Of a stretch of DNA of 64,000 bases, positions 11,212-62,897 are shown piece after piece. The DNA comes from a bacterium (GTDB taxonomy: Bacteria > Hinthialibacterota > Hinthialibacteria > Hinthialibacterales > Hinthialibacteraceae). The notes beneath the pieces are model-generated. The model was not told where the DNA came from, did no database searches, and saw only the letters and a program-made list of their open reading frames with translations. The number at the start of each line of letters is the position of its first letter. Position 1 is the first letter of the stretch. The translations under genes were made by a program, and so were the position numbers. The stretch spans positions 288,001 through 352,000 of the forward strand of contig CAXXMV010000003.1 of NCBI GenBank assembly GCA_963662285.2, in the 5' to 3' direction.

Positions 11212-11239
11212 TTGCGCTAATTTCAGTTTAACCTATAAT
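11212..11239 (+). promoter_or_regulatory. Putative sigma-70 promoter for the TPR-secretin operon
   Basis: TTGCGC-16 bp-TATAAT upstream of 11289; AT-rich context makes a chance match possible. Confidence 0.35.
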
Positions 11240-11288
11240 GTAATTGTTTCTATCTTAAATCTTTTTAATTAAATGGGATATAAACTGT

Positions 11289-38936: not shown

Positions 38937-39282
38937 AGTTTCACTTTTTTATTGATAAGTCGGTAAAAAGGGGATGAAGGCCGAAATTTACACTGTATCT
39001 TGTATGAATCTCCCTCGTATAACCACATAATATTGTGATTATACTATACTTTTTTAACTTTTTACCGTTTCGTCATAATATGTTTTTTTAATGAACCGTA
39101 AAACCCGTTGGATCAAAAAGAAAGGCGTTGAATTGTAATATTGAATAAAAATATGGAAAATAATGAAAATATAGGTTGAATAATGGTCTGATTTTATATA
39201 TTGTAGATGACGTATATTTATAAGTCGGGAAAACTGTGTTTATCCCGTGGTTTTTTGTACGCCCAAGAATACGGAGGCACCG

Positions 39283-42123
39283 ATGTTGAAATCCATGATG
39301 AAACCCATCGCACTGCTAACCATAATGATGGTTTGCTGTGCGAGTGCATCTTTCGGAGATGCATCGATTACTCTTCAACCTAAAGCCGAATCGGTTAATG
39401 TGGGAGGGGATATTGTATACGATGTTCTCCTTTCCGCTGATCAACCATTCAGCGCTTATATGTTGAAAGTAGAATTCAATTCTGCTGATGGAGCCGCCGT
39501 TTCCGCGCACCAATACAGTATCGATACAGCAGTATGGACTGCCGCCAATCAGGCCCATGAAGCGATTTTGCTTCCGCCTGAAGTGGATGGCAACACCATT
39601 CTTCTGCAATCGTCATTGGTTGGTCCGGATACGGAAGCCGCCTACGCAGACGCAGTCTCTATCGGCCAGTTAAGCGTTAAGGCCGATAACCAGGGGACGC
39701 TGATTGCATCTATCGCCGGCGCTAATTTTTTCACTGACGGGTTGCAACAACCCGAAGGCGCAAATATTGGCGTGCTGATAACTGATGCAGCGCCTGTTTC
39801 AATTCAGCCAGCGGCCCAGATGGTCTTTGGAGACGCCAGCGGAAATGGAACATTGGGAATTGAAGACTCTTTGATGATCAGACAGTATCTGGCTGGCTTC
39901 AGAGATTCAGTACCCGATCCAGTCGCTGCTGATATTAATCCGGGAATCCCCGGCATAGATATCACCGATGCGTTGTTCATTCAGCAGATTCTTGCTCAAT
40001 TACGGCCTGATCCTAACAATCCAGAGGCGGCAACGCCTGCGGGTAAAGTAGCGAAATCAATCGGGATCAGAAATCTAATCGTTTCACCTTTCGCAGTGCC
40101 TGATAATACAATTACTTTTGTTGTTGAAGGCGGACCTTATGGGGTTGGCGATAACGTGACGGCTGCTTTGACCGCAAATGTCGGAGCAAGCGTCTTTGGT
40201 AGTTATAATGTCAGCGTTACTTATGATCCCGCTGTTTTAACTTATCAGAGCATTGCTTCTGGCGCTGCAGAACTTGGATTGCCTGTTGCTAACGCCAACA
40301 CGGCAGGCCTGATTCTGATGAATGGCGTAAACGCGGCTAGTTTTTCTTCTCCAACAGGAGAAGTTGTACTTGCTAACATCACATTCCAGGTTGCTGCTGT
40401 CTCTGGTGGTTCAACTAATTTGAGTGTTGCAGTTACACAAATGACTGATGTGAATTTCACTCCAATTAACGTAGCATCTCAAGCGACTGCCGTTGCTTTA
40501 GCGGGTGCTGAGCCAACGCCTACTGAGACGCCTACAGCGACTCCAGTGCCACCGACTCCGACTAATACGCCGGAGCCGCCAACGCCGACCGCAACCGAGT
40601 CTGCTGTTCCGACGCCAACCGAGTCTGCTGTTCCGACTCCTACTAACACGCCGGAACCACCGACACCGACGGCAACAGAATCTGCGGTTCCAACACCAAC
40701 CGAGTCTGAAGTTCCGACTCCTACTAACACGCCGGTGCCGCCAACTCCGACTCCAACCGAGTCTGTAGTTCCAACACCAACTCCAACCGAGTCTGTAGTT
40801 CCGACACCGACTCCAACAGAGTCAGAGGTTCCAACACCGACGCCTGTACCTCCAACACCGACTCCAACCGAGTCAGAGGTACCGACGCCAACTCCAACAG
40901 AGTCTGAGGTACCAACACCGACGCCTGTACCTCCAACACCGACTCCAACCGAGTCAGAGGTACCGACGCCAACTCCGACAGAGTCTGAGGTTCCAACACC
41001 GACTCCAACCGAGTCAGAAGTACCGACGCCGACGCCTACAGAGTCAGAAGTTCCGACTCCAACTAACACGCCAGTGCCGCCAACACCGACTCCAACTGAG
41101 TCAGAGGTTCCGACACCGACGCCTACAGAGTCAGAAGTTCCGACACCGACGCCAGTGCCACCAACACCGACTATAGAGCCACCGACGCCGACTCCTACAG
41201 TTGAGCCGCCAACACCGACTCCGACTGTGACACCAATACCACCTACACCTACGCCAACTGTTGGTGAGGTTGAGGTAACTATGGATAGCGGCTTGATTGC
41301 CATGTCTCACGAAGGACTATTCCTAAGCCGTGGCATCGATTCCGGTGCTGAAGTTGATACAGGCGAAGTACTTCGCGGACGACCGATAGATATTGAAGTG
41401 ATCAACGGCGAACTGGTCTATGTAACAATGGACGGAACCGTTTATCCTGAATCAATGCGCAAAGACAGCGCAGGCGGAACAGCTCTGAAAGTCAATGACG
41501 TGATTGATCTGGAACCACTGGGCGATGGCGCAGGTTATCTGCTGCTGGATCGCTGGGGTAACGTACATGCTTATGGCACGGCGACGCATCAAGGCGACGC
41601 GGTATATAAGCAAAGCGTTTCTTTTGGCTCCAAACCATTTACTGTTACAGTTCCATTGGCGGTTGATCTCGAAGTTGTTGCTGATCCTGCTAATCCAAAC
41701 ACAAACCTCGGTTACTACATCCTAGGTTCTGACGGAAGCATAACCTCTGTTGGTAATGTTCCCGCTATGCCTGCTGCAATGGATGAACCATCTGACGTTC
41801 TTGGCGCAAGAGCGCTTGAACTCAGTGTGACCGGCGGCATTGTAACCGGATACGAAGTTCTTCTACAGAACGGTACTATTGTGTTCTGGAATGGAACTAT
41901 TAAAGCACTTGGCGCTCCGATCAATCACAGTGTGAATGATCCGGAAATTGTTGACTTCACGAGAGCCGGAGGAGCCATCTTCCTGCTTAACGAGCAAGGC
42001 GTTGTATACGGTCCAGATTATCTGGAACTATCCAACGATCCAGGCGCGTTTGGCGGCCTTATAGGAAAGTATGGATTCTTCGATATCGAAGCTGGATTCT
42101 TAACTCCCGCACCGGGTGAATAA
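39283..42123 (+). CDS. Secreted cohesin-dockerin-cohesin protein with Pro/Thr-rich stalk and C-terminal repeat (propeller-like) domain
   Basis: GGAGG RBS, signal peptide; cohesin-like [13 protein letters not shown] and [14 protein letters not shown]...LANITFQV; dockerin [15 protein letters not shown]...[16 protein letters not shown]; DLE...GY.LLD..G.VH..G repeats. Confidence 0.8.
40510..41262 (+). repeat. Coding tandem repeats encoding a Pro/Thr/Glu linker ([18 protein letters not shown])
   Basis: Degenerate CCx ACx codon repeats over ~250 codons. Confidence 0.95.
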
Positions 42124-42193
42124 CAAAACCAGGTAAAGGATTGGTAGAAGAATGAACAGGAACACAAATAAACTCTTGACCTTTTGGGGGTTC

Positions 42194-43306
42194 ATGAATA
42201 TGAGTCGACTACATACGCTACTTTTGGCTCTTGGCATCATCTCAGCCTTTATGGTGGGACCGTCTCCTGCTGAAGCCCAAAACGATTTCCATGCGTTGTA
42301 TAACCGCTATCGCTTCCACCATGTGGGGTATTCACCCCGCTCGGCGGCGATGGGCGGGGCCTATAGCGCTCTGCAAGACAACGAAAACGGACTGGTTGGA
42401 AACCCGGCCAGCCTTGGTTTCAAGACAGCTCCGTTCATCGTTGGTGGTTATGATTGGGAAAACGTCTCAAGTGACTTAACCCTTCTCAATCCTAACGCGC
42501 CGGTCGAAGGCGAAGCCGATTTGATGACAGTCAACGTCGGTGGAGCTTATCCATTCGAATGGGGCGCTGTTGGTCTCCAATATGCGTACCGTTGGGATGA
42601 ACTAGATTCCGATGACGCTCCTTCCGCCGTTGGTTTTATGAACCAGGACGGCGAACTGGATCGCTCTTATATCGGACTTGGCGTTGGTTACAAGATGATG
42701 GAAGATATTGCGCTTGGTTATCGTTTCGGATACTTTGATTGGGATCTGGAACGGGATATCAACGTAGTTCGTCCAGCGCCTTTCCAACTAGCTCAGATCG
42801 ATGAAGATTTCTCAGGACATCGTCACCAGTTCGGCGTTCAGTATTTAGCGCATGAACAATTGGTGTTGGGTCTTGATGGATACTTCGCATTAGGCGACCG
42901 TGATTCGGGTACGCTTGGTGATGCGGATGCAGATTCTTACGCCGTTCGCGGTGGTCTGGCATGGCAGGTAACTCCTGATCTTCCATTGACCGTTGCAATG
43001 GATTTGAATTATGAAATCCGTGATCTGGATGGCGCCGGTAATGACGCTGAAGAAGATCTCTTCGGAATTCACCTGGGCGTTGAGTATGAGGTTTATGAAA
43101 ATCTCTTCCTGCGCGGTGGATATCAATTCGAAGATATCGATTATGAAGACGTTCCTGCTAACATTGATGAATCGCTATCAATCAGCGGTTTCAGTTTAGG
43201 ACTCGGTTACGAGTACGAAAACATTACCTTTGATTATGCATTCCAATTCATTGATACCGGCAGCGGCGACTTGGCTCATTACTTTGGCATCGGCTATCAG
43301 TTCTAA
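42194..43306 (+). CDS. Outer-membrane beta-barrel, FadL/PorV-PorQ-like
   Basis: Signal peptide, hatch motif SPRSAAMGGAYSAL...GNPASL, amphipathic strands, FLRGGY, terminal GIGYQF. Confidence 0.8.
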   Translation: MNMSRLHTLLLALGIISAFMVGPSPAEAQNDFHALYNRYRFHHVGYSPRSAAMGGAYSALQDNENGLVGNPASLGFKTAPFIVGGYDWENVSSDLTLLNPNAPVEGEADLMTVNVGGAYPFEWGAVGLQYAYRWDELDSDDAPSAVGFMNQDGELDRSYIGLGVGYKMMEDIALGYRFGYFDWDLERDINVVRPAPFQLAQIDEDFSGHRHQFGVQYLAHEQLVLGLDGYFALGDRDSGTLGDADADSYAVRGGLAWQVTPDLPLTVAMDLNYEIRDLDGAGNDAEEDLFGIHLGVEYEVYENLFLRGGYQFEDIDYEDVPANIDESLSISGFSLGLGYEYENITFDYAFQFIDTGSGDLAHYFGIGYQF

Positions 43307-48891: not shown

Positions 48892-50034
48892 CTATTTGAT
48901 AGACCAATCATCAACAGCAGTTTGTAATGTGTTTATTACAAAAATGCTGTCGCTGGCATTGTGGGAACTGAAAAAGGCATAGGCCTGATCGTCAGTCACT
49001 TCAAAAGCGCGGCAGTGGCTGCTGAATGCATCGGTTCCAGTTATATCATTGAGGTCGCTATTGGTGATAAACGCTACGGGAACGCTATTGTTTTCAACTT
49101 GCAATCCATCTGATGAAAGTTTATATATTTTTAAACCAGCGATATTACCTAAAATATACAGATACGGTTCGCCAGAGGCTACGCCTGCGATTTTTACGCT
49201 TACTGCATCTGCATCTTCCGCTTCACCAGGCTCAAAGACCAAACTTACCAGTAATGTTTCTACGCCTGTTTCTGGATCAAGTACGTAAGCCGAAGAAGTC
49301 TTGGTCAATGTATCTCCTTCGCAGTAATAGATCAGGTCTTTGCCATCGATATATTTGACCTCGAAATTACGCAACCGGGCGAGTGAGGTAAAGAATGTTC
49401 CGCCATCCTGCCAATCCGTATCCAGTATAAAAGGCATTCCATCTTCGGCTAACGAAGCTGTAACTTTATAGCGGTGAATCTTCATGCGGTTTTCGCCGCC
49501 GGAATAATGATTGGTGTACAGATAGGTTCCATCATGATTGAAATTCAAGGTGTCACAGGCTGGGAGTACATCAGCTTCGAGCCAGCTGTCTGATTCGTTG
49601 CCAATATTGTAATCATCGGGATATCCGGTGAATGTGACTTCTTCTTGACCACCATTGCCGATGACCAGACGGGTTCCAAATTGCGAACTTCCCTTGGGTA
49701 ATCCATACATGTGATTGGTAGCCCAACGGTGCGCAACCTGATCTGCGTTATCGGCGTCTCGCAACTCTTGAACTACATATTGCGAGAAAAATGCATTAGC
49801 GTTGGAGTCTGATGTGTATAAATAAGTCTGGTCAGATGTTGAATCCGTTGTACTGGGTCCGCCGAAACTCCAGTAATGAGGTGAAGGACCATGGGTTTCC
49901 TCATCCATTACTTCCACATATTTCAGGTTTGGAGCATTCCACCAATATGACTTAGCTGCTCCATAGTTACAAATAAATCCAAGAAATAAAACACCCCATA
50001 AGCTGCGAAGAAAAATTGATTTGTTTAATGCCAT
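48892..50034 (-). CDS. Secreted beta-rich (propeller-like) hypothetical protein with C-terminal TAVDDWSIK tag
   Basis: AGGAG RBS, signal peptide, FNHDGTYLY and VTDDQAYAFF blade-like segments. Confidence 0.7.
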   Translation of the reverse strand: MALNKSIFLRSLWGVLFLGFICNYGAAKSYWWNAPNLKYVEVMDEETHGPSPHYWSFGGPSTTDSTSDQTYLYTSDSNANAFFSQYVVQELRDADNADQVAHRWATNHMYGLPKGSSQFGTRLVIGNGGQEEVTFTGYPDDYNIGNESDSWLEADVLPACDTLNFNHDGTYLYTNHYSGGENRMKIHRYKVTASLAEDGMPFILDTDWQDGGTFFTSLARLRNFEVKYIDGKDLIYYCEGDTLTKTSSAYVLDPETGVETLLVSLVFEPGEAEDADAVSVKIAGVASGEPYLYILGNIAGLKIYKLSSDGLQVENNSVPVAFITNSDLNDITGTDAFSSHCRAFEVTDDQAYAFFSSHNASDSIFVINTLQTAVDDWSIK

Positions 50035-50135
50035 TATCTTACTCCTGTTAATGATGTATTTGAATCATACGACAATATTATAATAAGATAACAAGTATTT
50101 TGTTACTAGGATTAGAAGGTCATAATCAGTATTAA

Positions 50136-51521
50136 TTAGTTCTTAATAGCTGTTGCAGCCTTCAATCTATTTACAATCGAAAAAGCGATAAAATTACTCG
50201 CCACACCCACGACCAGCCCATCAATTCCGGTGGAGGCGGAGAATAGTTTGTTCCATAGAATCATTCCAGTTATACCCGCCAGGGTTCCAGTTATAAAACC
50301 AAGTTTTGAAGTCCTGAAGCCAAGCAGCACAGCGGCCAGAGGGATCAATATGATAGGCGCCCAGAAGTTGTATGCATAAAGCAAAATATCAAGTACGCTC
50401 TCGATTGACACTGCGAAAATTATCGCTGATATTCCAACTAACATATTGGTTAGTTTGGCAAGGTTCAGTTCGGCTCTATCTGATAGTGGCTTGCGGCGCA
50501 ATGGTTTTACGATATCGTTGATTAATCCGGAAGACGCTCCATTCAAGAATGAGTCAGCCGAAGACATTACTATAGAGATCACACCTGCTATTACGATACC
50601 GCGTAATCCGATGGGAAGCGCATTTTGGATTAAATAGGGCATAGATAAATTTGGATCGAGTTCAGGATTTAAGGTCAGCGCCACGAGTCCGATCAGGCCG
50701 GTAATGGCGAAAAACGGGATGGAGAAGAGTCCGCTCAGCAGAGTCCCACGGGCGGTTTCGCGCGAATTTTTACCTATAAAGAGCCTTTGTACATATGGCG
50801 GCACTAATGTTTCACCTAAAACAAATGTCAGGAAGAGCGAGATAAGAGCGATCCAGGTCATGCTGTCGCCGGGAATCGATAAATGACCAGCGGGCGCTGA
50901 TTGAATAATCGCTTCGATTCCACCGGCCTGGCTGATTCCAAAGAATAAAGTTAGCGGGATGCCGATTCCCAGCACAAGAAATTGGATAACATCGGTCAAG
51001 ACAACAGCACGCATACCTCCAATGGTCGAGTAGGTAATAACGATGCCGCATCCAATCAGAATGCCCCAGATTTCGCTGATATTTAGAAAAACGTTGAAGA
51101 TTTTCCCCATTGCGCCGACTTGAGCGCCAACGATGCCAGCACAGAGGAAAACTGAAAATATTCCGGTTACGATCTTTCCAAATTTCCCATAGGCCGGTTC
51201 CATTATGTCTCCGGTAGAAATGAAACCGGGGAAATTCTTGGTTCTGGGAGCGATATATTTGGCGACCAGAATTTCCTTCAAACTGAATCCCCAAAGGGCG
51301 ACGATATTGACGATGCCAAAGCGGAAGACTTTTTCAGCATTGCCGATGGAGAAGCCTCCTCCAATAAACGAAGCCGAGAGCGTAGCGAATATTATCCATG
51401 AAGAATAGGATTGATGGGATACGGAGAAATCGCGTAAATTTTTTAAGCCTTTTCCACTATATATTCCAACACTGAGAATGAGAAGTAAATAAACGGCGAC
51501 GATGCCATGATCAATTTGCAT
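50136..51521 (-). CDS. Sodium:solute symporter family protein (PutP/PanF-like subgroup)
   Basis: TLSASFIGGG, YSTIGGMRAVVLTDVIQF, VMSSADSFL, many TM helices. Confidence 0.9.
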   Translation of the reverse strand: MQIDHGIVAVYLLLILSVGIYSGKGLKNLRDFSVSHQSYSSWIIFATLSASFIGGGFSIGNAEKVFRFGIVNIVALWGFSLKEILVAKYIAPRTKNFPGFISTGDIMEPAYGKFGKIVTGIFSVFLCAGIVGAQVGAMGKIFNVFLNISEIWGILIGCGIVITYSTIGGMRAVVLTDVIQFLVLGIGIPLTLFFGISQAGGIEAIIQSAPAGHLSIPGDSMTWIALISLFLTFVLGETLVPPYVQRLFIGKNSRETARGTLLSGLFSIPFFAITGLIGLVALTLNPELDPNLSMPYLIQNALPIGLRGIVIAGVISIVMSSADSFLNGASSGLINDIVKPLRRKPLSDRAELNLAKLTNMLVGISAIIFAVSIESVLDILLYAYNFWAPIILIPLAAVLLGFRTSKLGFITGTLAGITGMILWNKLFSASTGIDGLVVGVASNFIAFSIVNRLKAATAIKN

Positions 51522-52066
51522 AGGTAATATTTCCTTTGGTTAAAGTCTTAAAAGTGTAACTGGAGGTGAATCAAGATCAAGTGTTGTCTTGGTTTGATGA
51601 GATTGTATAAAGTCTGATTGGGGATTTCGGGGGATTTGATATGTCGTGAATTATTATTTTTAATAAATTGATGAAGTTATAGATAAATTAAAATCTAAGC
51701 ATAATAATAAATTATTTTTTATTAAAAAATGTCAAATATTTTAATAAAAGTTTATTTTTAAAATAAATTCATATTATAAAAAAAATCTAATCTATTAAGG
51801 TCTAATATTATAAATTAATGGTTAAAAATGATATTATTTTTGGTAAAATACTTTATAGTCTGATCTATTTTTGTTTCAACTGAAAACGAGTTGTCAATAT
51901 TTAGGAATCAAGATATATTTAGACAAATATAGTTATCGTTAATTAAAATTAAATAAATATCTAAATTTACGTCAAGAACTAAATAATAAGTAGTTCTATA
52001 CATTCATGAGAGGAAATATTTAGTATGATGAAAAACAATAAAATATAGTTGTGGAGGTATTTTATT

Positions 52067-52789
52067 ATGGAGAAGACTGATTCCGTCTTTCACTCTCAAT
52101 CGGATTACAAACTCATCGTGGATATTATTACAAAAATTGTTAACTCACGTCTAAGAGATAATCCAGAACTGGCAAAAGATATTATCTCTGAAAGTTCCTT
52201 ACGAGCATGGTTATCTATTAGTTCTAATCCGAACATAAAAGATCCATTGGCGTATGCAGCAAGAATTACCTTCAACACAATGAGTTCAATGCTGTCGATA
52301 AACACAAAGATCAGAGACGCACATTGCTCATTTGATAATGATAACAATGAAGAATCTTATCAAACCTTCCATAAGATGTTCATCCCGCACGATAATCCAT
52401 TAACTTATTTAGAAACAAGAGAATACATAGCGGGTTTGGCGAGAATCATTGGCATAACTCATTCTTTTGTACATAATCAATGCACTCCTGAAGAAACACT
52501 GATTTATCAGGAAATAATCCGTAGAAAAACAAACATAACTGTATTAGCCGAAATAATGGATTTATCAGAAGATGCATTAAACCAGCGTGTATTCAGGTTT
52601 ATGAGAAAAATTTCCGATCATGTCGAAAATGAAGTTAGAAATAATTCTCATTTATATGAATTACTCACAAGGATATTAAAGAATGAGGCAATACCTTTTT
52701 ACAGATTTGTCACTCTTCTTCTTAGAGTGGTAAAAGAAAATGGTTTAGAGACAATAGGTTTTGCCTTAAAGTCTCTAATAGGAGGATAA
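52067..52789 (+). CDS. Divergent ECF-type sigma-70 factor with C-terminal extension
   Basis: GGAGGT RBS; region-2-like AKDIISESSLRAW...PLAYAARITFN; region-4-like TPEETLIY...ITVLAEIMDLSEDALNQRVFRF. Confidence 0.65.
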   Translation: MEKTDSVFHSQSDYKLIVDIITKIVNSRLRDNPELAKDIISESSLRAWLSISSNPNIKDPLAYAARITFNTMSSMLSINTKIRDAHCSFDNDNNEESYQTFHKMFIPHDNPLTYLETREYIAGLARIIGITHSFVHNQCTPEETLIYQEIIRRKTNITVLAEIMDLSEDALNQRVFRFMRKISDHVENEVRNNSHLYELLTRILKNEAIPFYRFVTLLLRVVKENGLETIGFALKSLIGG

Positions 52790-52818
52790 TTCGTATTAAT
52801 AATTATTGTTGTAAACGC

Positions 52819-53067
52819 TCAGTGATCTATTAATGATCGCTGAGCGTTTTTTTTTGCATCTACAAATGCAGATTGCAGGGAATCTTCTATACCCCATAAC
52901 AAACCAAACATATTGATATTTCTTTTCAAATCATCTCGAACCATTTGATCATCACCGCATTTATCCAAAATTTGGTCAGGAGCAATAGATTCACCTTTAT
53001 TTAATCTGTTTACGTATTCTCCAAAAAGTTTTGCAGCAATTTCTATTTGCTTTTCAGTCAGATTCAT
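52819..53067 (-). CDS. Small helical hypothetical protein (82 aa)
   Basis: GGAGGG RBS; FGEYVNRLNKGESIAPDQILDK...DDLK. Confidence 0.65.
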   Translation of the reverse strand: MNLTEKQIEIAAKLFGEYVNRLNKGESIAPDQILDKCGDDQMVRDDLKRNINMFGLLWGIEDSLQSAFVDAKKNAQRSLIDH

Positions 53068-53261
53068 TATTCCCTCCGCGAATATTTTTATCCAATGGCG
53101 AAAATATTTTCTCTTTTATAGAATATAGAGAAGTGTTTGAACATTTTTTGACAAAAAAAATGAACTTTTTTTATCTTTGCCATTGTAAACGTAAGAATAG
53201 ATAAAGTAATATTCATTGCTTATCAGGAATATTTTTTATCTTTTGTAGATGGAGAATACAC

Positions 53262-53903
53262 ATGAAATTACCTAGACCAAGAGATTTAGGAGAAAAATTA
53301 CGTGTATGGAGAGAAAAAAAAGGACTATCTGTAAAGGATGTGGTTAATAAAAGTAAAAATTCTGATGTTTGCCAAAAACCATTTGCTGCGGGAGATGTTT
53401 CTAAATGGGAGACGAAGAAATCTCTACCTACATATAGAAGGCTAGTTAGAGATATCTTTCCTGCATATGAAATTGATGACATCTCTGAGTTCCTTTTAGA
53501 AATTACTCCAGAATATGATTCAATAAATGATGTCATTCATATTACAAGAGACAAAATTTCGATTAAAAATGATCCCGAACTTTGTACTAGAAGTCTTTAT
53601 ATTGATCCACATTACATCCAGAAATATCCATTGAGAGTTGACTTCTTGTATATCGAATCAAATAAATGCAGTGAATGGAGACAACATAAAGGTTGTGAAT
53701 ATTTGCTGGTCACGAAAGGCCAGTTGAATGTGATGATTTCAGAATCTGAAGATAACATAAATGCTATATCCTATGAATTAAATGAAGGCGACGCAATCGC
53801 ATTCTCAGGTCATTTATTTCACAAACTTCAGGTTACTAAAGGTGAAAGAGCTAAAATTGTAGTAGGAAGGCCTGTGTGGAGTGGACGAGAAGTTGAACCA
53901 TAA
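53262..53903 (+). CDS. XRE-family HTH transcriptional regulator with cupin domain
   Basis: LGEKLRVWREKKGLSVKDV, VSKWETKKSLP; cupin H.G.EYLLVTKG...LNEGDAIAFSGHLFH. Confidence 0.85.
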   Translation: MKLPRPRDLGEKLRVWREKKGLSVKDVVNKSKNSDVCQKPFAAGDVSKWETKKSLPTYRRLVRDIFPAYEIDDISEFLLEITPEYDSINDVIHITRDKISIKNDPELCTRSLYIDPHYIQKYPLRVDFLYIESNKCSEWRQHKGCEYLLVTKGQLNVMISESEDNINAISYELNEGDAIAFSGHLFHKLQVTKGERAKIVVGRPVWSGREVEP

Positions 53904-54259
53904 TAAAAGAAAAGCATTATGTGACAAAGCGAGAGTTGCTCTGAATGAGATTAGAATCATACAATGCGGTAGGTATACACGGCTTTGAGTCCGAATAGAT
54001 ACTCGATGTATTTCTCTCCGTAATAACACCAGCCCAGGATGGTTAAATCGGCGAATAAGACTAATCCTAATAATACTATAAAAACATAGCATTTTATAAA
54101 CATTACGATTATTCGCTTTGTCTTCCATAATACAAGCGCATGGTATATTATCATATACGTAATATAATGAATTGGTTAACATATACTTATTTATATTCGG
54201 AACTCCGAACTTCTCAAATTCTTGATTAACATATCCTCTTGATTTTTCGAGGCAGATGA

Positions 54260-55087
54260 ATGAGCGATATTTCAAATATTGAGCAGTATAAAACAGGTTG
54301 TTTATATCAGGTTCCCCTGGGTGAGATAGAGGCTGATCCCAATCAGCCCAGAAAATTCTTTGATAAAAAAGAATTGAACAAGTTATCTCAATCGATAAAG
54401 AATAAGGGCGTACTGCAGCCAGTTATTATCAGGGTTTGTGATAATCAATTGCTTCTGATTGCTGGAGAGCGGCGCCTGCGGGCCTCAAAAATTGCAAGAC
54501 TTAAATCAATTCCGGCTATTGTAGTCGAGGGCGACTCGGCGGAAATATCACTAATCGAGAATATCCAGCGTGAAGACCTGAATCCTATCGAAGAAGCTGA
54601 AGCCATTGCTAAACTTATTGAAATTAATGGATATAAAGATAAAGACCTCGTTCCAATTCTAGGTAAAGCCAAATCAACCATCAGCGAGATGAAGAAGTTG
54701 AATCTTCTGCCAGCCAGGATTAAAGACCAGTGCCGCAAGAGCAATCAATGGTCGCGCAACGTTCTACTGGAAATCGCCAAACAACCCACCAAAAAGAAAA
54801 TGCTCGAACTCTTTAATGAGGTGAAAAAGAATAATCTCAAGGGAAGAGAAGTGCGCACCATCACCCGTGGCAGAAGCCGGAAACGTAATAAAGCCTCAAT
54901 CATCGTCGATAAACTGCATAACGTTTTCAACTCCTTCACAGAATTGAAATTTGATGAGATTGAAGACGAGCAGAAGAAAAATCTCCGCACTGAACTAAGG
55001 GATATCAGAAAAAAAATCGATTCCATGCTGGATAATTTGAAAACTCAGGACGCTCCTGAAGAGTTGTCTTTATTTGATGATTTGTAG
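54260..55087 (+). CDS. ParB/RepB/Spo0J family protein (orphan, no adjacent parA)
   Basis: DPNQPRK, GVLQPV, LIAGERRLRA CTPase motif, LIENIQREDLNPIEEA, HTH LGKAKSTISE. Confidence 0.92.
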   Translation: MSDISNIEQYKTGCLYQVPLGEIEADPNQPRKFFDKKELNKLSQSIKNKGVLQPVIIRVCDNQLLLIAGERRLRASKIARLKSIPAIVVEGDSAEISLIENIQREDLNPIEEAEAIAKLIEINGYKDKDLVPILGKAKSTISEMKKLNLLPARIKDQCRKSNQWSRNVLLEIAKQPTKKKMLELFNEVKKNNLKGREVRTITRGRSRKRNKASIIVDKLHNVFNSFTELKFDEIEDEQKKNLRTELRDIRKKIDSMLDNLKTQDAPEELSLFDDL

Positions 55088-55193
55088 GAATCAATTAATT
55101 GTGCGCCTGGTTGGATCGAAGGTGATTGCAACAAGGTCTGACAGAATTCCGTGGTCTTGCCCTTGCCACTTGTCAAATCTGGCAAATTTATTA

Positions 55194-55230
55194 AAAAGGG
55201 TGAGCTAAATATCAAATTCAGCCCACCCTT
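55194..55230 (-). terminator. Terminator-like hairpin, homologous to 57859-57897
   Basis: AAAAAGGGTGAGCT...AGCCCACCCTT. Confidence 0.55.
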
Positions 55231-55260
55231 AATAGAAATTTTTGTCTTGGATTCAGGAGA

Positions 55261-57752
55261 TTAGAATAAAGACCATTCCTTAACAACTGTTCCTGTATCC
55301 TCGTAGTTGAACAATGCTTCTCCATTGAATTGATAGGAATATTTAGCGGTCATAGTCCAATACGGTCCGCTTGCTCTATCCACCAGTTTGTAAAAATCGG
55401 TATATCCATATATAGAGTCGCCGGACGAGTTGAATGTGTAGAATTGGTATGGCGCCAGTATGTGATCGACTAAACTGATCAGAATTTCTTTGCTGGTTGA
55501 ATCGGTTTGGGGATAATCTTCTTTTACGGAGATCATAGTGAGAAACCATGCGGCATCGTAGGCCATATAATCATAATCGGTTGGTTTGATGCCGATAAAA
55601 TCTTCCAAGACTTTTCGATAGGCTTTTTCAAACATACTAAATAAGTCCTGTGAAACGGTTCCAGGTGAAAAGGCGGTGAAATTGGTCTCTAGAGCGAAAG
55701 CAAAAGATGCTGGATCGTTGGCGATAGACGAGTTTTTGGCTAATCCATCTCCACCGAACCAACGGACGTCTCGCAATATTGAATCCTCAGGAATAGCGTT
55801 GAATAAGCCAACCGCTTCATCCAAAGATATAGCCAGGACTGCGGTTTTTTCTGTTCCTGAAATTGCTGCGGCGGATGTGATTCCATCTGTAATTAATCCG
55901 ATGGTCCCGGTGAAATCAGTAGTATCAACGCTATATGAAATGCCCTCGGCGCAGGTTCCACCGATTGCTTCGAATTTATCTTTGAAAAGCGAATATAAAT
56001 CGGCGCCATAATTATCATCGCGGTATACGGGTTGAACAAACTCAATCCCTAAATCTTGGAGATATACAGCTAAGGCATTAGCCAGTTTTTCGTTATCTAA
56101 AGCAAGACGGAATATGTTATCATCGACGGCCAGATCGAGCGATGTGCTGCTGGGTGAGATTAGGATTAGATCATTCTCGTTGGCGTAGGTTGCTACGGCG
56201 CTTAGTTCGCTGCTTTTCAATGGGCCGACGAACAATTCAACTCCCTGACTGTGCAATTCCTGGATTTTTTCCAGAGCAATTTGCGGATCAGAGGCCGTAT
56301 CTGCAACAACAATATCGATTGATGAATTCTCGGTGAAATTACGTTTTAGATAATGAGTTAAATCCGAAGACGCCATATCCAGAACTTTTTGAATTTCTAA
56401 ACCCATTGTGGAGTTATCGCCCGTTAAAGGCAGCAACGCTCCAATTTTTACCATGCGGTCGGTATACAATGGAGGATACTCATAATAGTTATACGTTTCG
56501 TATAAGTCCCCCAGTTCTGGTTGTGGCTTTTGATAGGAAGCAATCAGAGTCCATCATAATGGCCATTAGATTCCATGAAACTATGGAATGCTGTAACGCC
56601 ATTTGAACTATCTCCGTTAACATCGAAAACCAAAAAGTTGTTGACGCCAAATACTTCATAGGAGACTTTAATAAATTCTTCTTTGACATCAAAAACATCG
56701 GCCATCAAAGCGACGAAAGAAGCAATTTGGAAGGCATCATAAACAAAAGTAACAATATCTTCCTGTAATATTTCATCGGTCGATTTGTAGATTCGAGTCA
56801 AAAGGTTTTCGCATGTAGGAACGTGCGGATAAAAAGGATGGTATAAATCCTTAACAGAAGCAGCTGCAAAGGTGAAATTGGTTTGCAGCGCGAACGCTTT
56901 AACATCTTCGTCATTGGTGAAAGCAGAAATATGAGCGGCGTCATCATTATTAATCCACCGGGTTTGTTTAAGAGCGTCATGTTGGTAAGATAATTTGACA
57001 ATAGCCCCGATTTCATCATATGAGATGGAGATAACTGCTGTGCGGGATGAACTATCGGCGTTGATGCTCTCTTCAACAACCTGGTTGAGTTGTTGAACCG
57101 TGTCTGCAAAATCAGTTTGTTCGGGTGAATATTTAACTTCTCCGGCAATGGTTCCCCCTGCAGCAACCCATAAAGGCTTAAAAGCATTGGCGTATTCATT
57201 ACCATAGGTATCATCACGGAACAAAAGCGCTACGGATTTATGATCATGCCTTTGCAAGAATTCTGAGACCGCTGTGGCTTTTTCAATATCATTCATGTGC
57301 ATCCGGAAAATCATATCGTCAATGGCCAATGAAGGGGATGTACTGGTTGGCGATATGATCAAAATATGATTTTCATCAGCAAAAGGTTTGATTTTCTCTA
57401 CGCATGAACTTGAGAACGGGCCAATGATGACCTGAATGCCTTGATCATGCAATTGCTGGATCTTCTCCAGTGCCACATCTGGATTGGTCTCTGTATCTTC
57501 AGCGACCAATTGAATATTCATATCAGAAAATAAACGTTCTATGTCTGCTTCAGCAATATCTAAAACAGCCTGCGTTGTTTGGCCCATGACGGATAAACCG
57601 CCGGTAAAGGGCGCCAAAACTCCAATTTTAACAATTTCCTGGGCGAATAAATTCGGGGTGATCGTCACGAGAAGCAACATGATTATGCCAAACAAAAAAA
57701 ACGATTTAATTTTTGTTTGACATTTGTTTGAGTGCAATAGTTTGTTATGCAT
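55261..57752 (-). pseudogene. Double periplasmic-binding-protein (LIVBP/Peripla_BP_6) protein, split by a 1-nt deletion near 56554 (pseudogene or sequencing error)
   Basis: ORFs 56544-57752 and 55261-56469 are collinear with the two halves of 57937-60459; the shifted frame reads WTLIASYQKPQP...YEYPPLYTDRM, matching the paralog linker. Confidence 0.8.
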
Positions 57753-57858
57753 AGGACTTATTTTTTAATCTATCCTTTCATTTTAAAATATATATTAAAT
57801 ATTATGATCTTACTATATAGTTCATATTGCTTATAGCGCATGGGAAGTCTAAAAAGCA

Positions 57859-57897
57859 AAAAAAGGTGAGTTACATATAAAATTCAACCCACCTTTA
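57859..57897 (-). terminator. Terminator-like hairpin, homologous to 55194-55230
   Basis: AAAAAAGGTGAGTT...AACCCACCTTT. Confidence 0.55.
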
Positions 57898-57936
57898 ATA
57901 TTAATTTGCTTATCAGGCGCAAATCCTTACGCAGTA

Positions 57937-60459
57937 TTAATATAAAGACCATTCCGCAACAGCTGTTCCTGGTGCAGGATCGAAATTATATAATTTCTCT
58001 CCATTGAACTGATAGGAATATTTGGCGGTTGTACTCCAATAGGCGCCGTTAGTTCCATCCTTCAACCGATAAAAGTCAGTGTATCCATATTGTGAATCAC
58101 CGAACGAGTTGAATGTATAGAATTGAAACGGACCTTGTGCATGGTTGACCAGGTCAAATAGTAATTCACTTTGGGAAGCGCCAGTTTGGTCGTAATCTTC
58201 TTTGACAGTTAGCATCGTCAGGAACCATGCTGCATCATAAGCCATATAATCATAAGCGGCTGGTTTGCTTCCGATGAAATCACGTAATACATTACGCCAT
58301 GATCTTTCAAACATCCCGAAAATATCGTATGAGGTGTTTCCCGGTGAGAATGCCGTGAAATGTGTTTTGAGCGCGAAACTGTAGGCTGAAGGATCGTTGG
58401 CTATTGATGCATTTTCAGATAGGCCATCACCACCGAACCAGCGTACTTCACGCAATATCGAATCCTCTGGTATTGTGTTGAATAAATTTACCGCTTCATC
58501 TAAAGCAATGACTAATACAGCAGTGTTTGTTGTTTCATGAATTGCTGCTGCCGATGCAATACCATCTTTAAGAAAATCAACGGTTTCACTAAAATCAGAG
58601 GTATCAATGCTGTATGAGACGCCTTCAGCGCAGATTCCGCCGACGGCCTCGAACTTTTCCTTAAATACCGTATAGAAATCAGCGCCGTAAATATCATCGC
58701 GGTAAACCGTCTGGACGAACTCAATGCCGATATCCTTGAGATACGCAGCCAGGGCATTGGCCATTTTTCCATTATCCAAGGCAAGACGGAAGATATTATC
58801 ATCGAGAGCCAGATCAAGAGACGTGCTGCTGGGAGAGAGCAGGGTAAGTCCATTGTCATTGGCATAGGTTGCTACAGAACTTAACTCACTGCTGGTTAGA
58901 GGGCCGATGAAAAGTTCCACTCCCTGACTGTGCAGTTCCTGAATTTTTTCTAATGCAACTTGTGGATCAGAGGCCGTATCAACCGACACTATCTCAATGG
59001 ATGAATTTTCTGTAAATTGTCTTTTCAGATATTTCGTTAAATCTGAACCGGCCATCTCCAAGGTTTTTTGCATCTGCAATCCCATAGAAGCATTATCACC
59101 GGTTATCGACAAGAGCGCGCCGATTTTTACGGAGCGATCTGTAAAGATGGGAGGATATTCGCTATAGTTATAAGGTATATACAATTCATAGGGCGGTTGG
59201 GGCGTTCGGTAGGTTGCGACCAATCCCCATCCTGCTTGACCATCAGAGACCATGAAACGATGGAATCCGGTTGTACCATTACTGCGGTCTCCGTTTTCAT
59301 CAAAAATTAAAAAACTGCTGATTCCAAAAAGTTCTTGAGAAAGTTCAATAAAACTTTCTTTTGTATCAATGAAATCGACCAGCAAAGCGGCAAAGCAACC
59401 TACCTGGAAGGAATCGTAAACATAAAAAATGATATCTTCCTGAAGTTTTTCATTGGTCGATTCATATATTTGCGTCAGGAGGTTTTCACATTTTGGAACA
59501 TGTAGATAATAGGGGTGGTACAGTTCCTGGACGGCAACTGAGGCAAAGGTGAATTCAGTTTGCAGGGCGAAATTTTTCACATCTGCGTCATTCAAGAACG
59601 CATCAATGTGGGAAGCGGATTCATTTTCAATCCATTTCACTTGCGAAAGCGCCTCATGTTGTGAAGCCGCTTTGGCGATGTCGCCGATCTCTTCGTATGA
59701 AATAGACAGGACGACAGTTTGTGATGCGCTATTTGCATCGATGTTATCTTGCACTATTTGGTTGAGTTGTTGGACAGTTTCAGTAAAATCAGTTTGATCC
59801 GTTGAATATTTAACCTCATCAATAACCGTTCCGCCCAATTCAATCCACAAAGGCTTGAAGGTATTAGCGTATTCATTGCCATAAGTATCATCACGGTATA
59901 GCAGCGCAACGGATTGATAATCTTGTTGCTGTATGAATTCAGCAACAGCAGCGGCTTTGTTGTTATCATTCGGGTGCATCCGGAAAATCATATCATCCTC
60001 AGCCAGGGAAGGGGCTGTGCTGGTCGGAGATATGATCAAAATGTGGTTTTCATCAGCAAAAGGTTTAATCTTCTCGACGCATGAACTGGAGAACGGTCCA
60101 ATGATTACCTTTATGCCTTGATCATATAATATTTTAATTTTTTCCAATGCGACATCGGGATTAGTCTCCGTATCTTCGACGACAATTTCGAATTCTATGT
60201 CGTTAAATAATTTCTCTACATTTGATTTAGCAGTTTCAAGCGCAGCCTGGGCAGTTTTCCCCATAATAGATAGACCGCCGCTAAATGGGATCAAGGCGCC
60301 AACTTTAACAATTTCTTGGGCGAACGAATTTGGAGTGAGCGTACCTTGAAGCAAAATAATCATCCCAAACACCAACAGCGATTTCATTCCACGTTGTATG
60401 ATTCGATTTTGTGATAAACCAGAATACAAAAAAATCATCTTCTTATTAATTCCTCTCAT
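57937..60459 (-). CDS. Secreted protein with two tandem LIVBP-like (Venus flytrap) binding domains and C-terminal TAVAEWSLY tag
   Basis: Two K(V/I)GAL...G domains, each with IGP..SS, SP.ST and YRDD.YG; signal peptide ending SFA-QE. Confidence 0.85.
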   Translation of the reverse strand: MRGINKKMIFLYSGLSQNRIIQRGMKSLLVFGMIILLQGTLTPNSFAQEIVKVGALIPFSGGLSIMGKTAQAALETAKSNVEKLFNDIEFEIVVEDTETNPDVALEKIKILYDQGIKVIIGPFSSSCVEKIKPFADENHILIISPTSTAPSLAEDDMIFRMHPNDNNKAAAVAEFIQQQDYQSVALLYRDDTYGNEYANTFKPLWIELGGTVIDEVKYSTDQTDFTETVQQLNQIVQDNIDANSASQTVVLSISYEEIGDIAKAASQHEALSQVKWIENESASHIDAFLNDADVKNFALQTEFTFASVAVQELYHPYYLHVPKCENLLTQIYESTNEKLQEDIIFYVYDSFQVGCFAALLVDFIDTKESFIELSQELFGISSFLIFDENGDRSNGTTGFHRFMVSDGQAGWGLVATYRTPQPPYELYIPYNYSEYPPIFTDRSVKIGALLSITGDNASMGLQMQKTLEMAGSDLTKYLKRQFTENSSIEIVSVDTASDPQVALEKIQELHSQGVELFIGPLTSSELSSVATYANDNGLTLLSPSSTSLDLALDDNIFRLALDNGKMANALAAYLKDIGIEFVQTVYRDDIYGADFYTVFKEKFEAVGGICAEGVSYSIDTSDFSETVDFLKDGIASAAAIHETTNTAVLVIALDEAVNLFNTIPEDSILREVRWFGGDGLSENASIANDPSAYSFALKTHFTAFSPGNTSYDIFGMFERSWRNVLRDFIGSKPAAYDYMAYDAAWFLTMLTVKEDYDQTGASQSELLFDLVNHAQGPFQFYTFNSFGDSQYGYTDFYRLKDGTNGAYWSTTAKYSYQFNGEKLYNFDPAPGTAVAEWSLY

Positions 60460-60642
60460 GTTTGTTTTATAAGACAGTTAATAGTTTACTACTTCCAATT
60501 AATTATCTAATCCTTTGTATCTTTTTTTTAAATTATTTGTGTATTATGTAAAAAATAAATACATAAATACATTCGGATATTCGAATTATGTTTGAGATGA
60601 TATCCAGGGATATTGTTTAAGGAAAAGATTTTCAGGAAAAAA

Positions 60643-60672
60643 AAACAAGGAGCTTGCAATAAGCCCCTTGTT
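60643..60672 (-). terminator. Intrinsic terminator
   Basis: AACAAGGAGCTT-GCAAT-AAGCCCCTTGTT with poly-T on the minus strand. Confidence 0.6.
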
Positions 60673-60704
60673 GTATGCGTATTTCTATTCAATTGAAACA
60701 GGAA

Positions 60705-62897
60705 TTAGAACAAACTCCAATCCTGCACAGCAGTTCCGCCATCGAGTAAATTCAAAATAGTCCAACCCGATTCGTTGTTGTATGGTTCAAAGACATTTCC
60801 GTTTGCTTCGCTGGAGTGCCATCCCCATTTTCCAGTGCGCACGCCGGGATTGTCGGCATCGCTGCTGTTCATCATGATGTCGAATCCGATCTGTGTGCGG
60901 GAAGCCGGATCAAGAATTGCGTCTTTAATCACGCGGTATTCAACTACGAAGCCTGAATTGTCATCTTTGACTTTAGCGCCGACAGCCCAATAGATAATTA
61001 GGTCTTCTCCGTCGCGGCCATTTTCCATATACTTACCACCGCCTGGAGCATCAAGCATTTCCGGGAAATACTTGTTGTTGGATGCGGCAATCCTACCGTC
61101 GCCCACAACCGTCAGCTGGCATCCTAAATTATTGCTTTCGATGGAAGCACTGCGTGATAGATTTCCATCAAAGTATAATTCCGTGCTATCAGCGTTCCAG
61201 AAGCTTGCATCGGGATATTCAAAACTGAGGTTTGGATCGGTAACGTCGAGACTTACGTACAAATAATCCGTATCGTGAAATACGTAGAAGGAGACGTTTT
61301 CTTCATCAGCGGGATACTCAACGCCGGAAATATGAACGCCCGGCGCGGTATTACCATCAGAAGTGTCGTGATTGAATGAATAGACATTGGCGTCTTGGTA
61401 TTCACCATCACTGATGATGCCGTCCAGGGTTACTGTGTTGGAAAGGAATGGAGCTTCCACCATCGTATCTTTGACATATTGGCTGAAATATAGAGGCGTA
61501 TTTACACCAAAAATGGATTCGCCGTCCACTGTTCCAGACCAGACCGGAGCTAGAGTAATCTCGCTAGGAGAAACAGCATTATAGGTCAAGTTTACAGCCG
61601 CATCAGAAGCGACTTCAACTTCCCAGGAAATTACGCCATCAGCAACTGTTCCGCCATTACTGATATCAGATGCCGACCAGCCTTCAGGTAGGGTTTCCAG
61701 TACGGTTACGGTATCGGTTTCACCTTTCATGGTTAATGAAAGTTCAATGCCTAAAGTCGCTGAATCTCCTTGATAAATGGTAGCGTCATCGGAAAAGGAT
61801 CTCACTGCCAGACAGAAAGAAGAGACCAAACCGAAACGGATGTTATCAATCAAAAGATTTTGACCATCCGCGGTATTGGCGTCGCTGCCCTGATCATGAT
61901 GAAAACCAATAGCGAAATCGCCGCCTTCAATGATTGAATTCATGTGCGGCCCCAAATCCAAAGAGAAACCAAGAGGTCTCCAATTGGCTTGGTTGCCGCT
62001 GATGCCTCTAAATTCCACAGGAACGCTTGTTCCTCCTGAGGTGGAGACCAAGTAGGGGCGTATTACGCACCAGGTAGAGAAATCTGAGGTCACGCAGGCA
62101 TCAAAATAGATAGCGCGAACTCTGGACCAATCTACGTCTTCTTTGGTGTTGATAGTCTTGGCGGAGCGCATGTTACCCTGAGTAATTGAAATCAACATGC
62201 AGTTGTCGCCTTCAGACGGCGTGACGAAATCAGCGCCCAATACGGGAGGTAGTGCAGCCTGATCTTTCATCCAACCCAGAGGAGCGTCATCACCGGGATT
62301 GGTTTCGTTTAAGCCGTAAACCGGGATAATTTCCAATTCGATAGGATTAAGTGGACGAACGGCATAGATGTTGTCCAGGTAAAAACGTCCTGTTCCAATC
62401 GTTCCGGCGCTGATGACCATATTGATTCTATTGAAGTCAGCCATCTCGTTTGATGAGCGGTAAGGATCAATAGGCATAACGACTTCATACCATTCACCCG
62501 GGGTAATGTAATCGAAGGACAGGCAATCATCCGGCGGCAAATGTATACGCATGGGAACATGTCCGTTACCATCGGTTGCACTGTCATCCAGAAAATACAT
62601 AGAGAAACGTAGTTCTGTGACGCCAGTCAAATCATGAGACTCAGGCAATGTGATATTGGCCTGTGACCATGAATTGCTGCTGGTGCAATCATACTCTACG
62701 TATACCGCCCAGGGACTATCGATCTCTGGTACATTCTCTGCTGCTACTTCGTCGATCATAGAGAACGTAACTGAACCACCAGCCATCGCTACATCAGATA
62801 ATTCAAAACTGTCAACAAATACGTTTTCGGTCTGGGCAAAGCCCTGACTCACAATCAGTGATACAAATAGTACGCACATCGCAAATCTTTTTGTCAT
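60705..62897 (-). CDS. Secreted multi-domain carbohydrate-binding protein (CBM-like modules plus CBM9/DOMON-like domain) with C-terminal TAVQDWSLF tag
   Basis: GGAGG RBS, signal peptide GFA-Q; TLDGIISDGEY, YLYVSLDVTD, WNADSTELYFD, VEYRV, IGFDIMMNSSD. Confidence 0.75.
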   Translation of the reverse strand: MTKRFAMCVLFVSLIVSQGFAQTENVFVDSFELSDVAMAGGSVTFSMIDEVAAENVPEIDSPWAVYVEYDCTSSNSWSQANITLPESHDLTGVTELRFSMYFLDDSATDGNGHVPMRIHLPPDDCLSFDYITPGEWYEVVMPIDPYRSSNEMADFNRINMVISAGTIGTGRFYLDNIYAVRPLNPIELEIIPVYGLNETNPGDDAPLGWMKDQAALPPVLGADFVTPSEGDNCMLISITQGNMRSAKTINTKEDVDWSRVRAIYFDACVTSDFSTWCVIRPYLVSTSGGTSVPVEFRGISGNQANWRPLGFSLDLGPHMNSIIEGGDFAIGFHHDQGSDANTADGQNLLIDNIRFGLVSSFCLAVRSFSDDATIYQGDSATLGIELSLTMKGETDTVTVLETLPEGWSASDISNGGTVADGVISWEVEVASDAAVNLTYNAVSPSEITLAPVWSGTVDGESIFGVNTPLYFSQYVKDTMVEAPFLSNTVTLDGIISDGEYQDANVYSFNHDTSDGNTAPGVHISGVEYPADEENVSFYVFHDTDYLYVSLDVTDPNLSFEYPDASFWNADSTELYFDGNLSRSASIESNNLGCQLTVVGDGRIAASNNKYFPEMLDAPGGGKYMENGRDGEDLIIYWAVGAKVKDDNSGFVVEYRVIKDAILDPASRTQIGFDIMMNSSDADNPGVRTGKWGWHSSEANGNVFEPYNNESGWTILNLLDGGTAVQDWSLF

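Follow-up and report, generated by a model that had tools for sequence, protein, structure and literature searches.

We uncovered a short peptide tag at the extreme C-terminus of approximately 150–160 exported proteins from many unrelated families, in a bacterium of the candidate phylum Hinthialibacterota; it is likely a signal that acts after Sec export to sort, target or anchor proteins to the cell envelope or surface. The tag came to attention in a stretch of 64,000 nucleotides from this genome (assembly GCA_963662285.2, contig CAXXMV010000003.1, positions 288,001 to 352,000; hereinafter the window, to whose own numbering the unprefixed coordinates below refer). The original prediction, made from the sequence of the window alone, had noted four open reading frames (ORFs) ending in variants of one motif and had proposed a minimal peptide address for a new sorting system. 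Our genome-wide and cross-genome analysis bears out the motif as a genuine, strongly enriched feature of the extreme C-terminus of signal-peptide-bearing proteins with unrelated folds, and it supports the sorting-signal reading; the machinery named along with it, namely short secretins and a PorV-like barrel, did not find support.

The tag and the proteins that bear it

ORFs of the source genome (G000; 7.29 Mb in 8 contigs, 44% G+C, 92.5% complete) were called mechanically, by longest start and greedy removal of overlaps, and not by a gene finder, which gave 5166 ORFs of at least 100 amino acids. The pattern suggested at the outset, when run on this whole proteome, matched 56 of the 5166 C-termini as against 0.06 expected from its internal rate (24 internal matches in 2,076,330 positions). 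Tryptophan occupies position −4 in 246 ORFs versus 79 expected, with the other terminal positions giving values of 60–124. Scores from an iterated 12-residue position-specific scoring matrix (PSSM) are bimodally distributed: 141 ORFs reach 12 bits or more and 160 reach 6 bits or more, where 0.05–0.3 would be expected. Most counts given below refer to the 149 ORFs scoring at least 10 bits, which constitute about 3% of the proteome. The consensus of the 141 highest-scoring tags is [PG]-T-x-[VI]-x-[DNE]-W-[SME]-[LIMV]-[YFH], in which the T is found in 96, the V or I in 136, the W in 135 and the [LIMV] residue in 137 of them, with the last position being Y in 86, F in 26 and H in 20.

The tag is tied closely to the end of the protein. 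While 135 ORFs terminate exactly in [PG]-T-x-[VI]-x-[DNE]-W-x-[LIM]-[YFH], a further 24 extend beyond it by a single residue (E in 11, D in four, N in three, Q, K and R in two each and Y in one), one by two residues and one by six. The region lying 7 to 49 residues before the end is free of PSSM matches, and the 15 located 50 or more residues away compare with about 20 anticipated by chance. The usual one-residue extension adds a carboxylate or an amide, which suggests that recognition depends in part on an aromatic residue beside a negative charge at the terminus. In line with the acidic cast of the tail, the last nine residues of the carriers have a mean net charge of −0.88, with K or R in 23 of the 149; in the six residues ahead of the tag Pro is enriched 2.1-fold, Glu, Gly and Thr are likewise enriched, and Lys and Arg are scarce. 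The conserved positions use all synonymous codons and all three stop codons occur, indicating that selection acts on the peptide and not on the DNA. A modest covariation between positions −3 and −1, with S at −3 accompanying Y or F at −1 in 48 of 51 cases and H at −1 accompanying M or E at −3 in 18 of 20, hints at the existence of sub-classes of the tag.

A signal-peptide-like N-terminus is present in 139 of the 149 carriers; among the ten that lack one, several display it downstream of an over-called start and one has a twin-arginine translocation (Tat)-type RRxFF motif. The Tat substrates of the window had been noted to lack the tag; outside it, the genome encodes at least one tagged protein of Tat type. 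Further transmembrane (TM)-like segments are seen in just two of the 149 carriers and a lipobox in five. The 149 carriers fall into 77 unrelated clusters in full-length BLAST comparisons, and the 80 residues preceding the tag fall into 105 clusters, which implies that the tag is not the end of a common domain. The 33 carriers that we annotated include proteins with CBM9 (five), CBM11, Laminin_G_3, combined LTD and CotH, right-handed β-helix (two) and Peripla_BP_6 (three) domains, as well as β-propellers, a β-lactamase-fold hydrolase and a protein uniting leucine-rich repeats with a phosphatase domain, with 14 belonging to no family; the largest carriers reach 2717 amino acids. Thus, the profile of the carriers is that of a surface or extracellular, largely glycan-directed set. 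As a separate observation, a small gene coding for a 133-amino-acid protein occurs in five copies (e.g., G000 C6:1386610-1387011), all of which lie within three genes of a carrier; its sequence looks Hsp20-like by eye, the copies presumably form part of paralogous operons, and the copy that was checked adjoins a carrier of 1862 amino acids.

Within the window, all four ORFs end in the tag as had been read, lie on the minus strand and place the Trp fourth from the end. The first encodes an exported protein of 380 amino acids (48892..50034), which ends in TAVDDWSIK (48895-48921) and is PSSM-positive; its terminal K is a rare variant, observed in two of the 141 tags. Two further carriers are an exported protein of 840 amino acids (57937..60459) with two Peripla_BP_6/ANF_receptor (Venus-flytrap) domains and the tag TAVAEWSLY (57940-57966), and an exported protein of 730 amino acids (60705..62897) with a C-terminal CBM9-like domain (CBM9_1) and the tag TAVQDWSLF (60708-60734). 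The remaining ORF (55261..56469), with a Peripla_BP_6/ANF_receptor domain and the tag TVVKEWSLF (55264-55290), is the 3′ half of a frameshifted paralog of the 840-residue carrier; the 5′ half (56544..57752) supplies the signal peptide and the first Peripla_BP_6 domain. A three-frame reading places the break near 56470-56545, in the inter-domain linker, whose sequence goes on in another frame, and this is why the 5′ half has no tag. The split paralog (55261-57752, minus strand) is either a pseudogene or an assembly error. As one tagged ORF is half of a broken gene, the window holds three independent carriers and one broken paralog. Hence, the Sec-type signal peptides that had been ascribed to all four ORFs are present in three, the ORF at 55261-56469 having none of its own. 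Of the three folds that had been assigned, the double Venus-flytrap and CBM9-like ones were recovered by family matches, and the 380-residue protein, described as propeller-like, has no significant match to any Pfam or NCBIfam family.

Exchange with known anchors and taxonomic range

The strongest argument for a sorting or anchoring role comes from what replaces the tag in homologs of the carriers. When the final 265 residues of the 730-residue carrier were used for an exhaustive search, 102 representatives were recovered, 36 of which end in the tag and one more in the tag plus one residue. Five of the 102 instead bear the type A sorting domain of the type IX secretion system (T9SS) at or above the cut-off (23.2-46.5 bits), and one bears a PEP-CTERM (20.1 bits, cut-off 16). 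By eye, other representatives end in a second PEP-CTERM-like tail, a TM anchor or a recurrent ...[FY]YR[VI] ending. Similarly, in one homolog of the β-propeller carrier the tag is replaced by a dockerin, preceded by a PT linker and TSP3 repeats. Thus, the tag occupies the position held in other lineages by the T9SS C-terminal domain (CTD), PEP-CTERM or dockerin. The same set of homologs offered two further observations. Endings of the form ...[FY]YR[VI]x(x) recur in nine representatives (P0160, P0174, P0175, P0179, P0184, P0185, P0199, P0203 and P0210), on which no NCBIfam model matches, and may constitute another undescribed C-terminal module of other lineages. In addition, the metagenomic homologs P0186, P0187, P0201 and P0207 end in AR[HK]WxxY[RKD], possibly a sister form of the W-x-x-Y tag.

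To survey the range of the tag, we turned V-x-[DENK]-W-x-[LIMFV]-[YF]-stop into a degenerate DNA pattern and applied it to 401 genomes, namely 35 of the phylum and 366 outsiders. In the source genome the pattern has 56 matches and its reversed control none. It has 13-46 matches in all 19 genomes of the same family, 7–20 and 3–15 in two further families of the same order (f2 and f3, respectively) and 15–25 in one genus of another order, with the controls giving 0–4 across the phylum survey. Even the tag-poor genomes of the phylum keep a few variant endings (about four in G028 and about eight in G026), and for this reason there are no clean tag-negatives inside it. Among the 366 outsiders the matches stay at background level except in G064 (12 versus 0 in the control) and G383 (8 versus 0), both members of one family. 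In G383 we verified 13 carriers that terminate exactly in the tag; nine of them have a signal-peptide-like start, and others show a signal peptide downstream of an over-called start. Tags are also present in metagenomic proteins. Accordingly, the statement in the original prediction that similar endings occur elsewhere proved sound: the tag is found phylum-wide, in one further lineage and in metagenomic sequences.

In the CBM9-type family of the 730-residue carrier, 21 of 24 phylum homologs (the carrier itself counted), with identities of 30–100%, end exactly in the tag, and the remaining three add 1-3 residues, even as the linker varies in length and sequence across the family. The tag Trp is likewise invariant in an alignment of 14 sequences comprising the β-propeller carrier and 13 homologs. 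These alignments point to purifying selection on the tag, which stays conserved while the linker drifts. The CBM9-like domain itself was not found in the outsiders G064, G383 or G337.

Pseudopilins, secretins and a possible export route

The neighborhoods of the carriers offer a lead to the apparatus that might read the tag. The source genome codes for about 110–115 prepilin-type paralogs of about 200 amino acids, each combining a near-identical N-terminal helix with a variable head of about 165 residues that displays a GspG-like signature (e.g., L004:215-856 and L005:203-799); none of the pilin-like proteins carries the tag. These proteins are the most enriched neighbor family of the carriers, with 34 of 111 encoded within three genes on either side. 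A pilin-like gene is located directly 3′ of, and co-directional with, 13 carriers, as compared with a mean of 2.2–3.0 and a maximum of 9 in 2000 permutations, and ten of these 13 pairs are separated by gaps of −1 to 141 bp. In G021 and G031, two genomes from other families or orders, 4 of 12 and 5 of 21 carriers, respectively, show the carrier-then-pilin arrangement as well, and in the outsider G383 pilin-like genes flank two of the 13 carriers versus about 0.2 expected. For one carrier and its pilin partner, the longest contigs reported for the orthologs of the two agree in length in six cases, suggesting that they share contigs.

The phyletic patterns of the potential machinery are consistent with such a connection. 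The pseudopilin head family is represented in all 35 phylum genomes and in five of the 366 outsiders, including both tag-positive ones, and the N-terminal helix recurs almost letter for letter in the unrelated outsider G383. Three complete GspE-to-GspD operons for type II secretion systems (T2SS), a type IVa pilus-like PilMNOPQ-BC cluster and a Tad locus are encoded by the source genome, along with a secretin of 1057 amino acids that has N-terminal TPR repeats and adjoins a PilM/N fusion. This PilM/N and TPR-secretin module resembles the verrucomicrobial Amuc_1098/Amuc_1101 families, below threshold. Outside the phylum, the TPR-STN region of the secretin finds its four best matches in four of the five pseudopilin-bearing outsiders, wherein a TPR-secretin of 1228–1576 amino acids is preceded by a PilM/N fusion. 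The tag-bearing genomes are nested within those holding both the expanded pseudopilins and the PilMN/TPR-secretin module.

We propose that the tag acts as an independent sorting peptide, used after Sec export and attached through a short linker rich in Pro, Glu, Gly and Thr to the final folded domain in some 150–160 soluble exported proteins, whose predicted activities are mostly glycan-binding, lectin-, adhesin- and lyase-like. In this scheme, the protein would cross the inner membrane by Sec, or rarely Tat, and fold in the periplasm, where the exposed acidic-aromatic tail, with its terminal carboxylate, would dock on a component of a type-4-filament apparatus; by analogy with the secretion signal of type IVb pili, candidate docking partners are a pseudopilin or the periplasmic domain of a secretin. 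The apparatus might comprise the roughly 110 GspG-like pseudopilins working with PilM/N and the TPR-fused secretin, the three canonical T2SS operons, or both. The growing filament would then take the folded cargo through the secretin, after which the cargo would either be released or stay on the filament at the cell surface, where it could serve, e.g., to capture polymers. The reading of the tag in the periplasm, the identity of the reader and the transport via the secretin are all inferred. Export by such a type-4-filament/T2SS-like route strikes us as a real possibility, if one that falls somewhat short of an even chance.

Two characterized systems provide parallels for this route. In the type IVb system, a flexible terminal peptide of about 15 residues with key aromatics, an aromatic pair in the case of TcpF, is described as hooking TcpF or CofJ onto the minor pilin TcpB or CofB, with filament growth carrying the docked protein through the secretin (PMC9565799). 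The tag recalls this signal in its conserved aromatics (W and Y/F), in the Pro/Gly-rich linker ahead of it and in the enrichment of pilin-like genes beside the carriers. However, it is not homologous to the type IVb signal, an N-terminal peptide that acts on a single cargo in each system and whose binding is shown by crystal structures; the present tag is C-terminal and is found on about 150 cargoes, and its putative binding is suggested only by gene order and co-occurrence. The substrates of classical T2SS are Sec- or Tat-exported folded enzymes that exit via a secretin, pushed by a GspG-type pseudopilus, and three full T2SS operons are available here; no linear signal is known for such substrates, and one tag of nine residues for all of them would have no precedent. 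A place on a filament would also fit both the binding modules of the cargo and the report that mucin uptake by Akkermansia requires pili genes of the PVC type (PMC12418764).

Several observations weigh against this proposal. A pilin-like gene lies directly downstream of only 13 of the 149 carriers of the source genome, most of which have no pilin gene nearby. Conversely, of 115 pilin-like genes, 11 follow a tagged gene, 21 an untagged secreted one and 26 other genes; since pilin-like genes also follow untagged secreted genes, the pairing is not specific to the tag. Pseudopilins and the TPR-secretin occur without the tag in G337, as do pseudopilins in G232, and within the phylum G023 has 166 pilin motifs versus three strict tag matches and G028 has 28 versus about four variant tags, such that the filament module does not need the tag. 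Moreover, with G064 and G383 belonging to one family, the co-occurrence outside the phylum counts as a single independent event (about 5 in 366). The T2SS operons of the source genome showed no GspC with a PDZ domain, and some carriers are very large (up to 2717 amino acids). Finally, T2SS secretion determinants are thought to be structural and composite, with no linear signal known (PMC7949064).

The components that the original prediction had put forward as machinery do not follow the tag. The first is encoded in a plus-strand cluster (9367-14609) comprising genes for a conserved protein of 581 amino acids that belongs to no family, a TPR protein weakly resembling BamD/FxLYD and two short secretins of 390 and 402 amino acids, which overlap and consist of the core only. 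The tag-positive outsiders have no short-form counterpart of this secretin pair, and a tag-negative outsider has a tandem pair of ORFs of about 397 amino acids matching the short secretin of the window. The 581-residue protein beside them, also considered as a candidate, was rejected: it is found phylum-wide and in five unrelated outside genomes, also where tags are few or missing, and neither of the tag-positive outsiders was found to have it. The second, a PorV-like barrel of 384 amino acids (42152-43306, plus strand), is preceded by the gene for a protein of 958 amino acids with a weak cohesin domain (39247-42123; the pair spans 39247-43306). Its PorV/PorQ match is below the cut-off (60.4 versus 90 bits) and it ends in ...GIGYQF, a pattern unlike the tag; it was not found in the tag-positive outsiders, nor was a T9SS found in the source genome. 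A second cohesin-domain protein (620 amino acids, L081:17706-19568) adjoins the PilMN/TPR-secretin module.

Two unusual gene structures were noted in passing. In one T2SS operon (L076; G000 C1:552000-572000), the secretin is distributed over two ORFs, one of 485 amino acids with the N0 and N domains followed by one of 414 amino acids with the secretin core, and the operon is followed by genes for a histidine kinase and a sigma-54 response regulator. In the window, the gene for a class I Glu/Gln-type tRNA synthetase (17949-19662, minus strand) is apparently split: a 152-residue ORF overlaps the start of one of 438 residues, in which the match to the catalytic domain starts at position 107 of the model. 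A frameshift or an error in sequencing may account for the split.

Alternative readings and relation to known sorting signals

Among the other ways of explaining the tag, we consider it unlikely, though one of the main rivals, that after export by whatever route the tail binds a surface scaffold, such as a cohesin-like protein, an outer membrane barrel, lipopolysaccharide or the S-layer, in a non-covalent fashion, as a minimal dockerin-like ligand that keeps the protein on the cell. The presence of a true dockerin at the position of the tag in one homolog speaks for it, as do the T9SS CTD and PEP-CTERM, the alternatives at this position, which also lead to surface attachment; so do the predominance of binding modules in the cargo and the cohesin-domain proteins adjoining both the PorV/PorQ-like barrel and the PilMN/TPR-secretin module. 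However, the cohesin matches are weak (E-values of 7e-6 to 7e-8), the tag-positive outsiders were not found to have the PorV-like barrel, and nine residues are far below the size of any known anchoring module; such retention also leaves the operon link to the pseudopilin genes unexplained by itself. It is compatible with the filament-loading proposal, given that display on a filament is itself a form of retention. A less probable alternative has the tail read by a periplasmic PDZ protein, such as a C-terminal processing peptidase or an HtrA-type protease or chaperone, for maturation, quality control or timed degradation and not for transport. The strictly terminal location, the aromatic or hydrophobic end and the extensions that mostly add a carboxylate are what a carboxylate-clamping reader would call for, and seven ORFs of the source genome match PDZ_2, six of them above the family cut-off. 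Yet this is an ordinary, unexpanded PDZ inventory, no PDZ gene figures among the enriched neighbor families of the carriers, and the conservation extends back to positions −9/−10, beyond typical PDZ ligands; furthermore, a phylum-old degron on about 3% of the proteome that can be exchanged with T9SS, PEP-CTERM and dockerin modules is hard to rationalize.

We give very little credence to a CAAX-like process, in which an Rce1-like/CPBP protease or another enzyme would cleave or modify the tail at the Trp at −4, in the manner of the CAAX Cys or the prenylated Trp of ComX, to create a lipid or other covalent anchor. The W at −4 in 135 of 141 tags would suit it; CPBP proteases serve some known CTERM systems, and the window has a gene for one (35347-36300, minus strand) with a weak likeness to MrtS, the Synerg-CTERM protease. 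The match is far under the cut-off, at 23.9 versus 130 bits, and CPBP genes occur commonly; moreover, a TM helix that could take the tag to an intramembrane active site is missing, and no link to a prenyltransferase was seen, although none was searched for. The least credible option is that the tag is no signal at all, being a structural last strand, an outer membrane β-signal, a DNA element or a product of chance or annotation. Its terminal aromatic does recall the β-signal of outer membrane proteins (OMPs), with its terminal F or Y on exported proteins, and many carriers end in a jelly-roll-like domain just ahead of the linker. The OMP signal, however, is the last strand of a barrel with alternating hydrophobics, whereas tag positions −9, −7, −4, −2 and −1 do not alternate and the carriers are soluble multi-domain proteins, the real barrel of the window having the ending mentioned above. 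With 105 unrelated contexts ahead of the tag, freely varying codons and stops and a chance expectation of at most 0.3, the counts already contradict this option.

With respect to known systems, the tag is a new type inside the known class of C-terminal sorting signals. No Pfam or NCBIfam sorting model matches it in the 17 carriers scanned. As had been argued from the window, it is neither accompanied by a TM helix nor a folded domain of ~70-80 residues, and the carriers are not β-barrels, their families being those of soluble multi-domain proteins. The T9SS sorting domain model TIGR04183 had no match on the 17 whole carriers or in a six-frame search of the genome, and the SprA model retrieved only a 15-bit fragment in it; these searches are to be read as lacking a positive control, in that SprA went unanswered in all control genomes and TIGR04183 responded only in Deinococcus radiodurans, below the cut-off. 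Nevertheless, the TIGR04183 matches on five homologs, described above, show that the model works on this kind of protein. More generally, the T9SS core was not found in the source genome, SprA and an above-threshold PorV having been looked for and PorU not searched separately. Exosortase_EpsH (PF09721) was also not found in this 92.5% complete genome; sortase, rhombosortase and archaeosortase were not searched. The titles and abstract beginnings that we went through, and the papers that we read, gave no description of such a tag or of a linear T2SS signal, and the main text of the one paper on Ca. Hinthialibacter contains zero occurrences of "C-terminal", "secretion system", "secretin" and "prepilin".

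In functional terms the tag is reminiscent of the T9SS CTD of Bacteroidota/FCB, which likewise sits at the extreme C-terminus after a linker and marks many diverse Sec-exported, folded, mostly glycan-active or adhesive proteins for the surface; the CTD, however, is a β-sandwich of ~70-80 residues that is cut off by PorU, as opposed to the 9–10 residues here. With PEP-CTERM and the other tripartite CTERMs (LPXTG, GlyGly-CTERM and MYXO-CTERM) it shares the format of a short C-terminal motif on many unrelated exported proteins in a restricted range of lineages. In those signals the motif is combined with a TM helix and a cluster of basic residues, and a membrane sortase-type enzyme processes them, in contrast to the acidic, protein-terminal tag without a TM helix. 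A more distant analogy is offered by the peroxisomal targeting signal PTS1 (C-terminal SKL), which PEX5 recognizes with its TPR domain during import into peroxisomes. Both are minimal C-terminal peptides, PTS1 requires a free carboxylate and directs folded cargo to a translocon, and the secretin that co-occurs with the tag carries TPR repeats. Of course, PTS1 is eukaryotic, serves another compartment and is a tripeptide in place of nine residues, and the TPR region of the secretin is here only a candidate reader.

C-terminal sorting signals define secretomes and have repeatedly led to new machinery, as in the case of sortases, exosortases, rhombosortases and the T9SS. The tag described here is the smallest such signal so far, having neither a TM helix nor a folded domain, and it comes from a poorly known candidate phylum of polymer degraders. 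A simple PSSM predicts the surface and secreted proteome of these uncultured bacteria from it, and a peptide of nine residues is attractive for engineered secretion or display. In its boldest form, which we regard as rather doubtful, our proposal makes the tag the first portable signal of linear type through which a type-4-filament (T2SS/type IV pilus-like) machine secretes or displays proteins, with about 150 cargoes loaded on about 110 interchangeable pseudopilins and passed out via the TPR-secretin or displayed as a polymer-capturing "fishing line". If a type-4 filament does read the tag, this would give the T2SS field its long-missing defined and transferable secretion signal, which would be categorically new for T2SS and type IV pilus biology, and would provide a function for the large expansion of pseudopilin paralogs seen here and in a few other lineages. 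The expanded pseudopilins of these organisms, and perhaps of PVC-type bacteria, would then be cargo adaptors.

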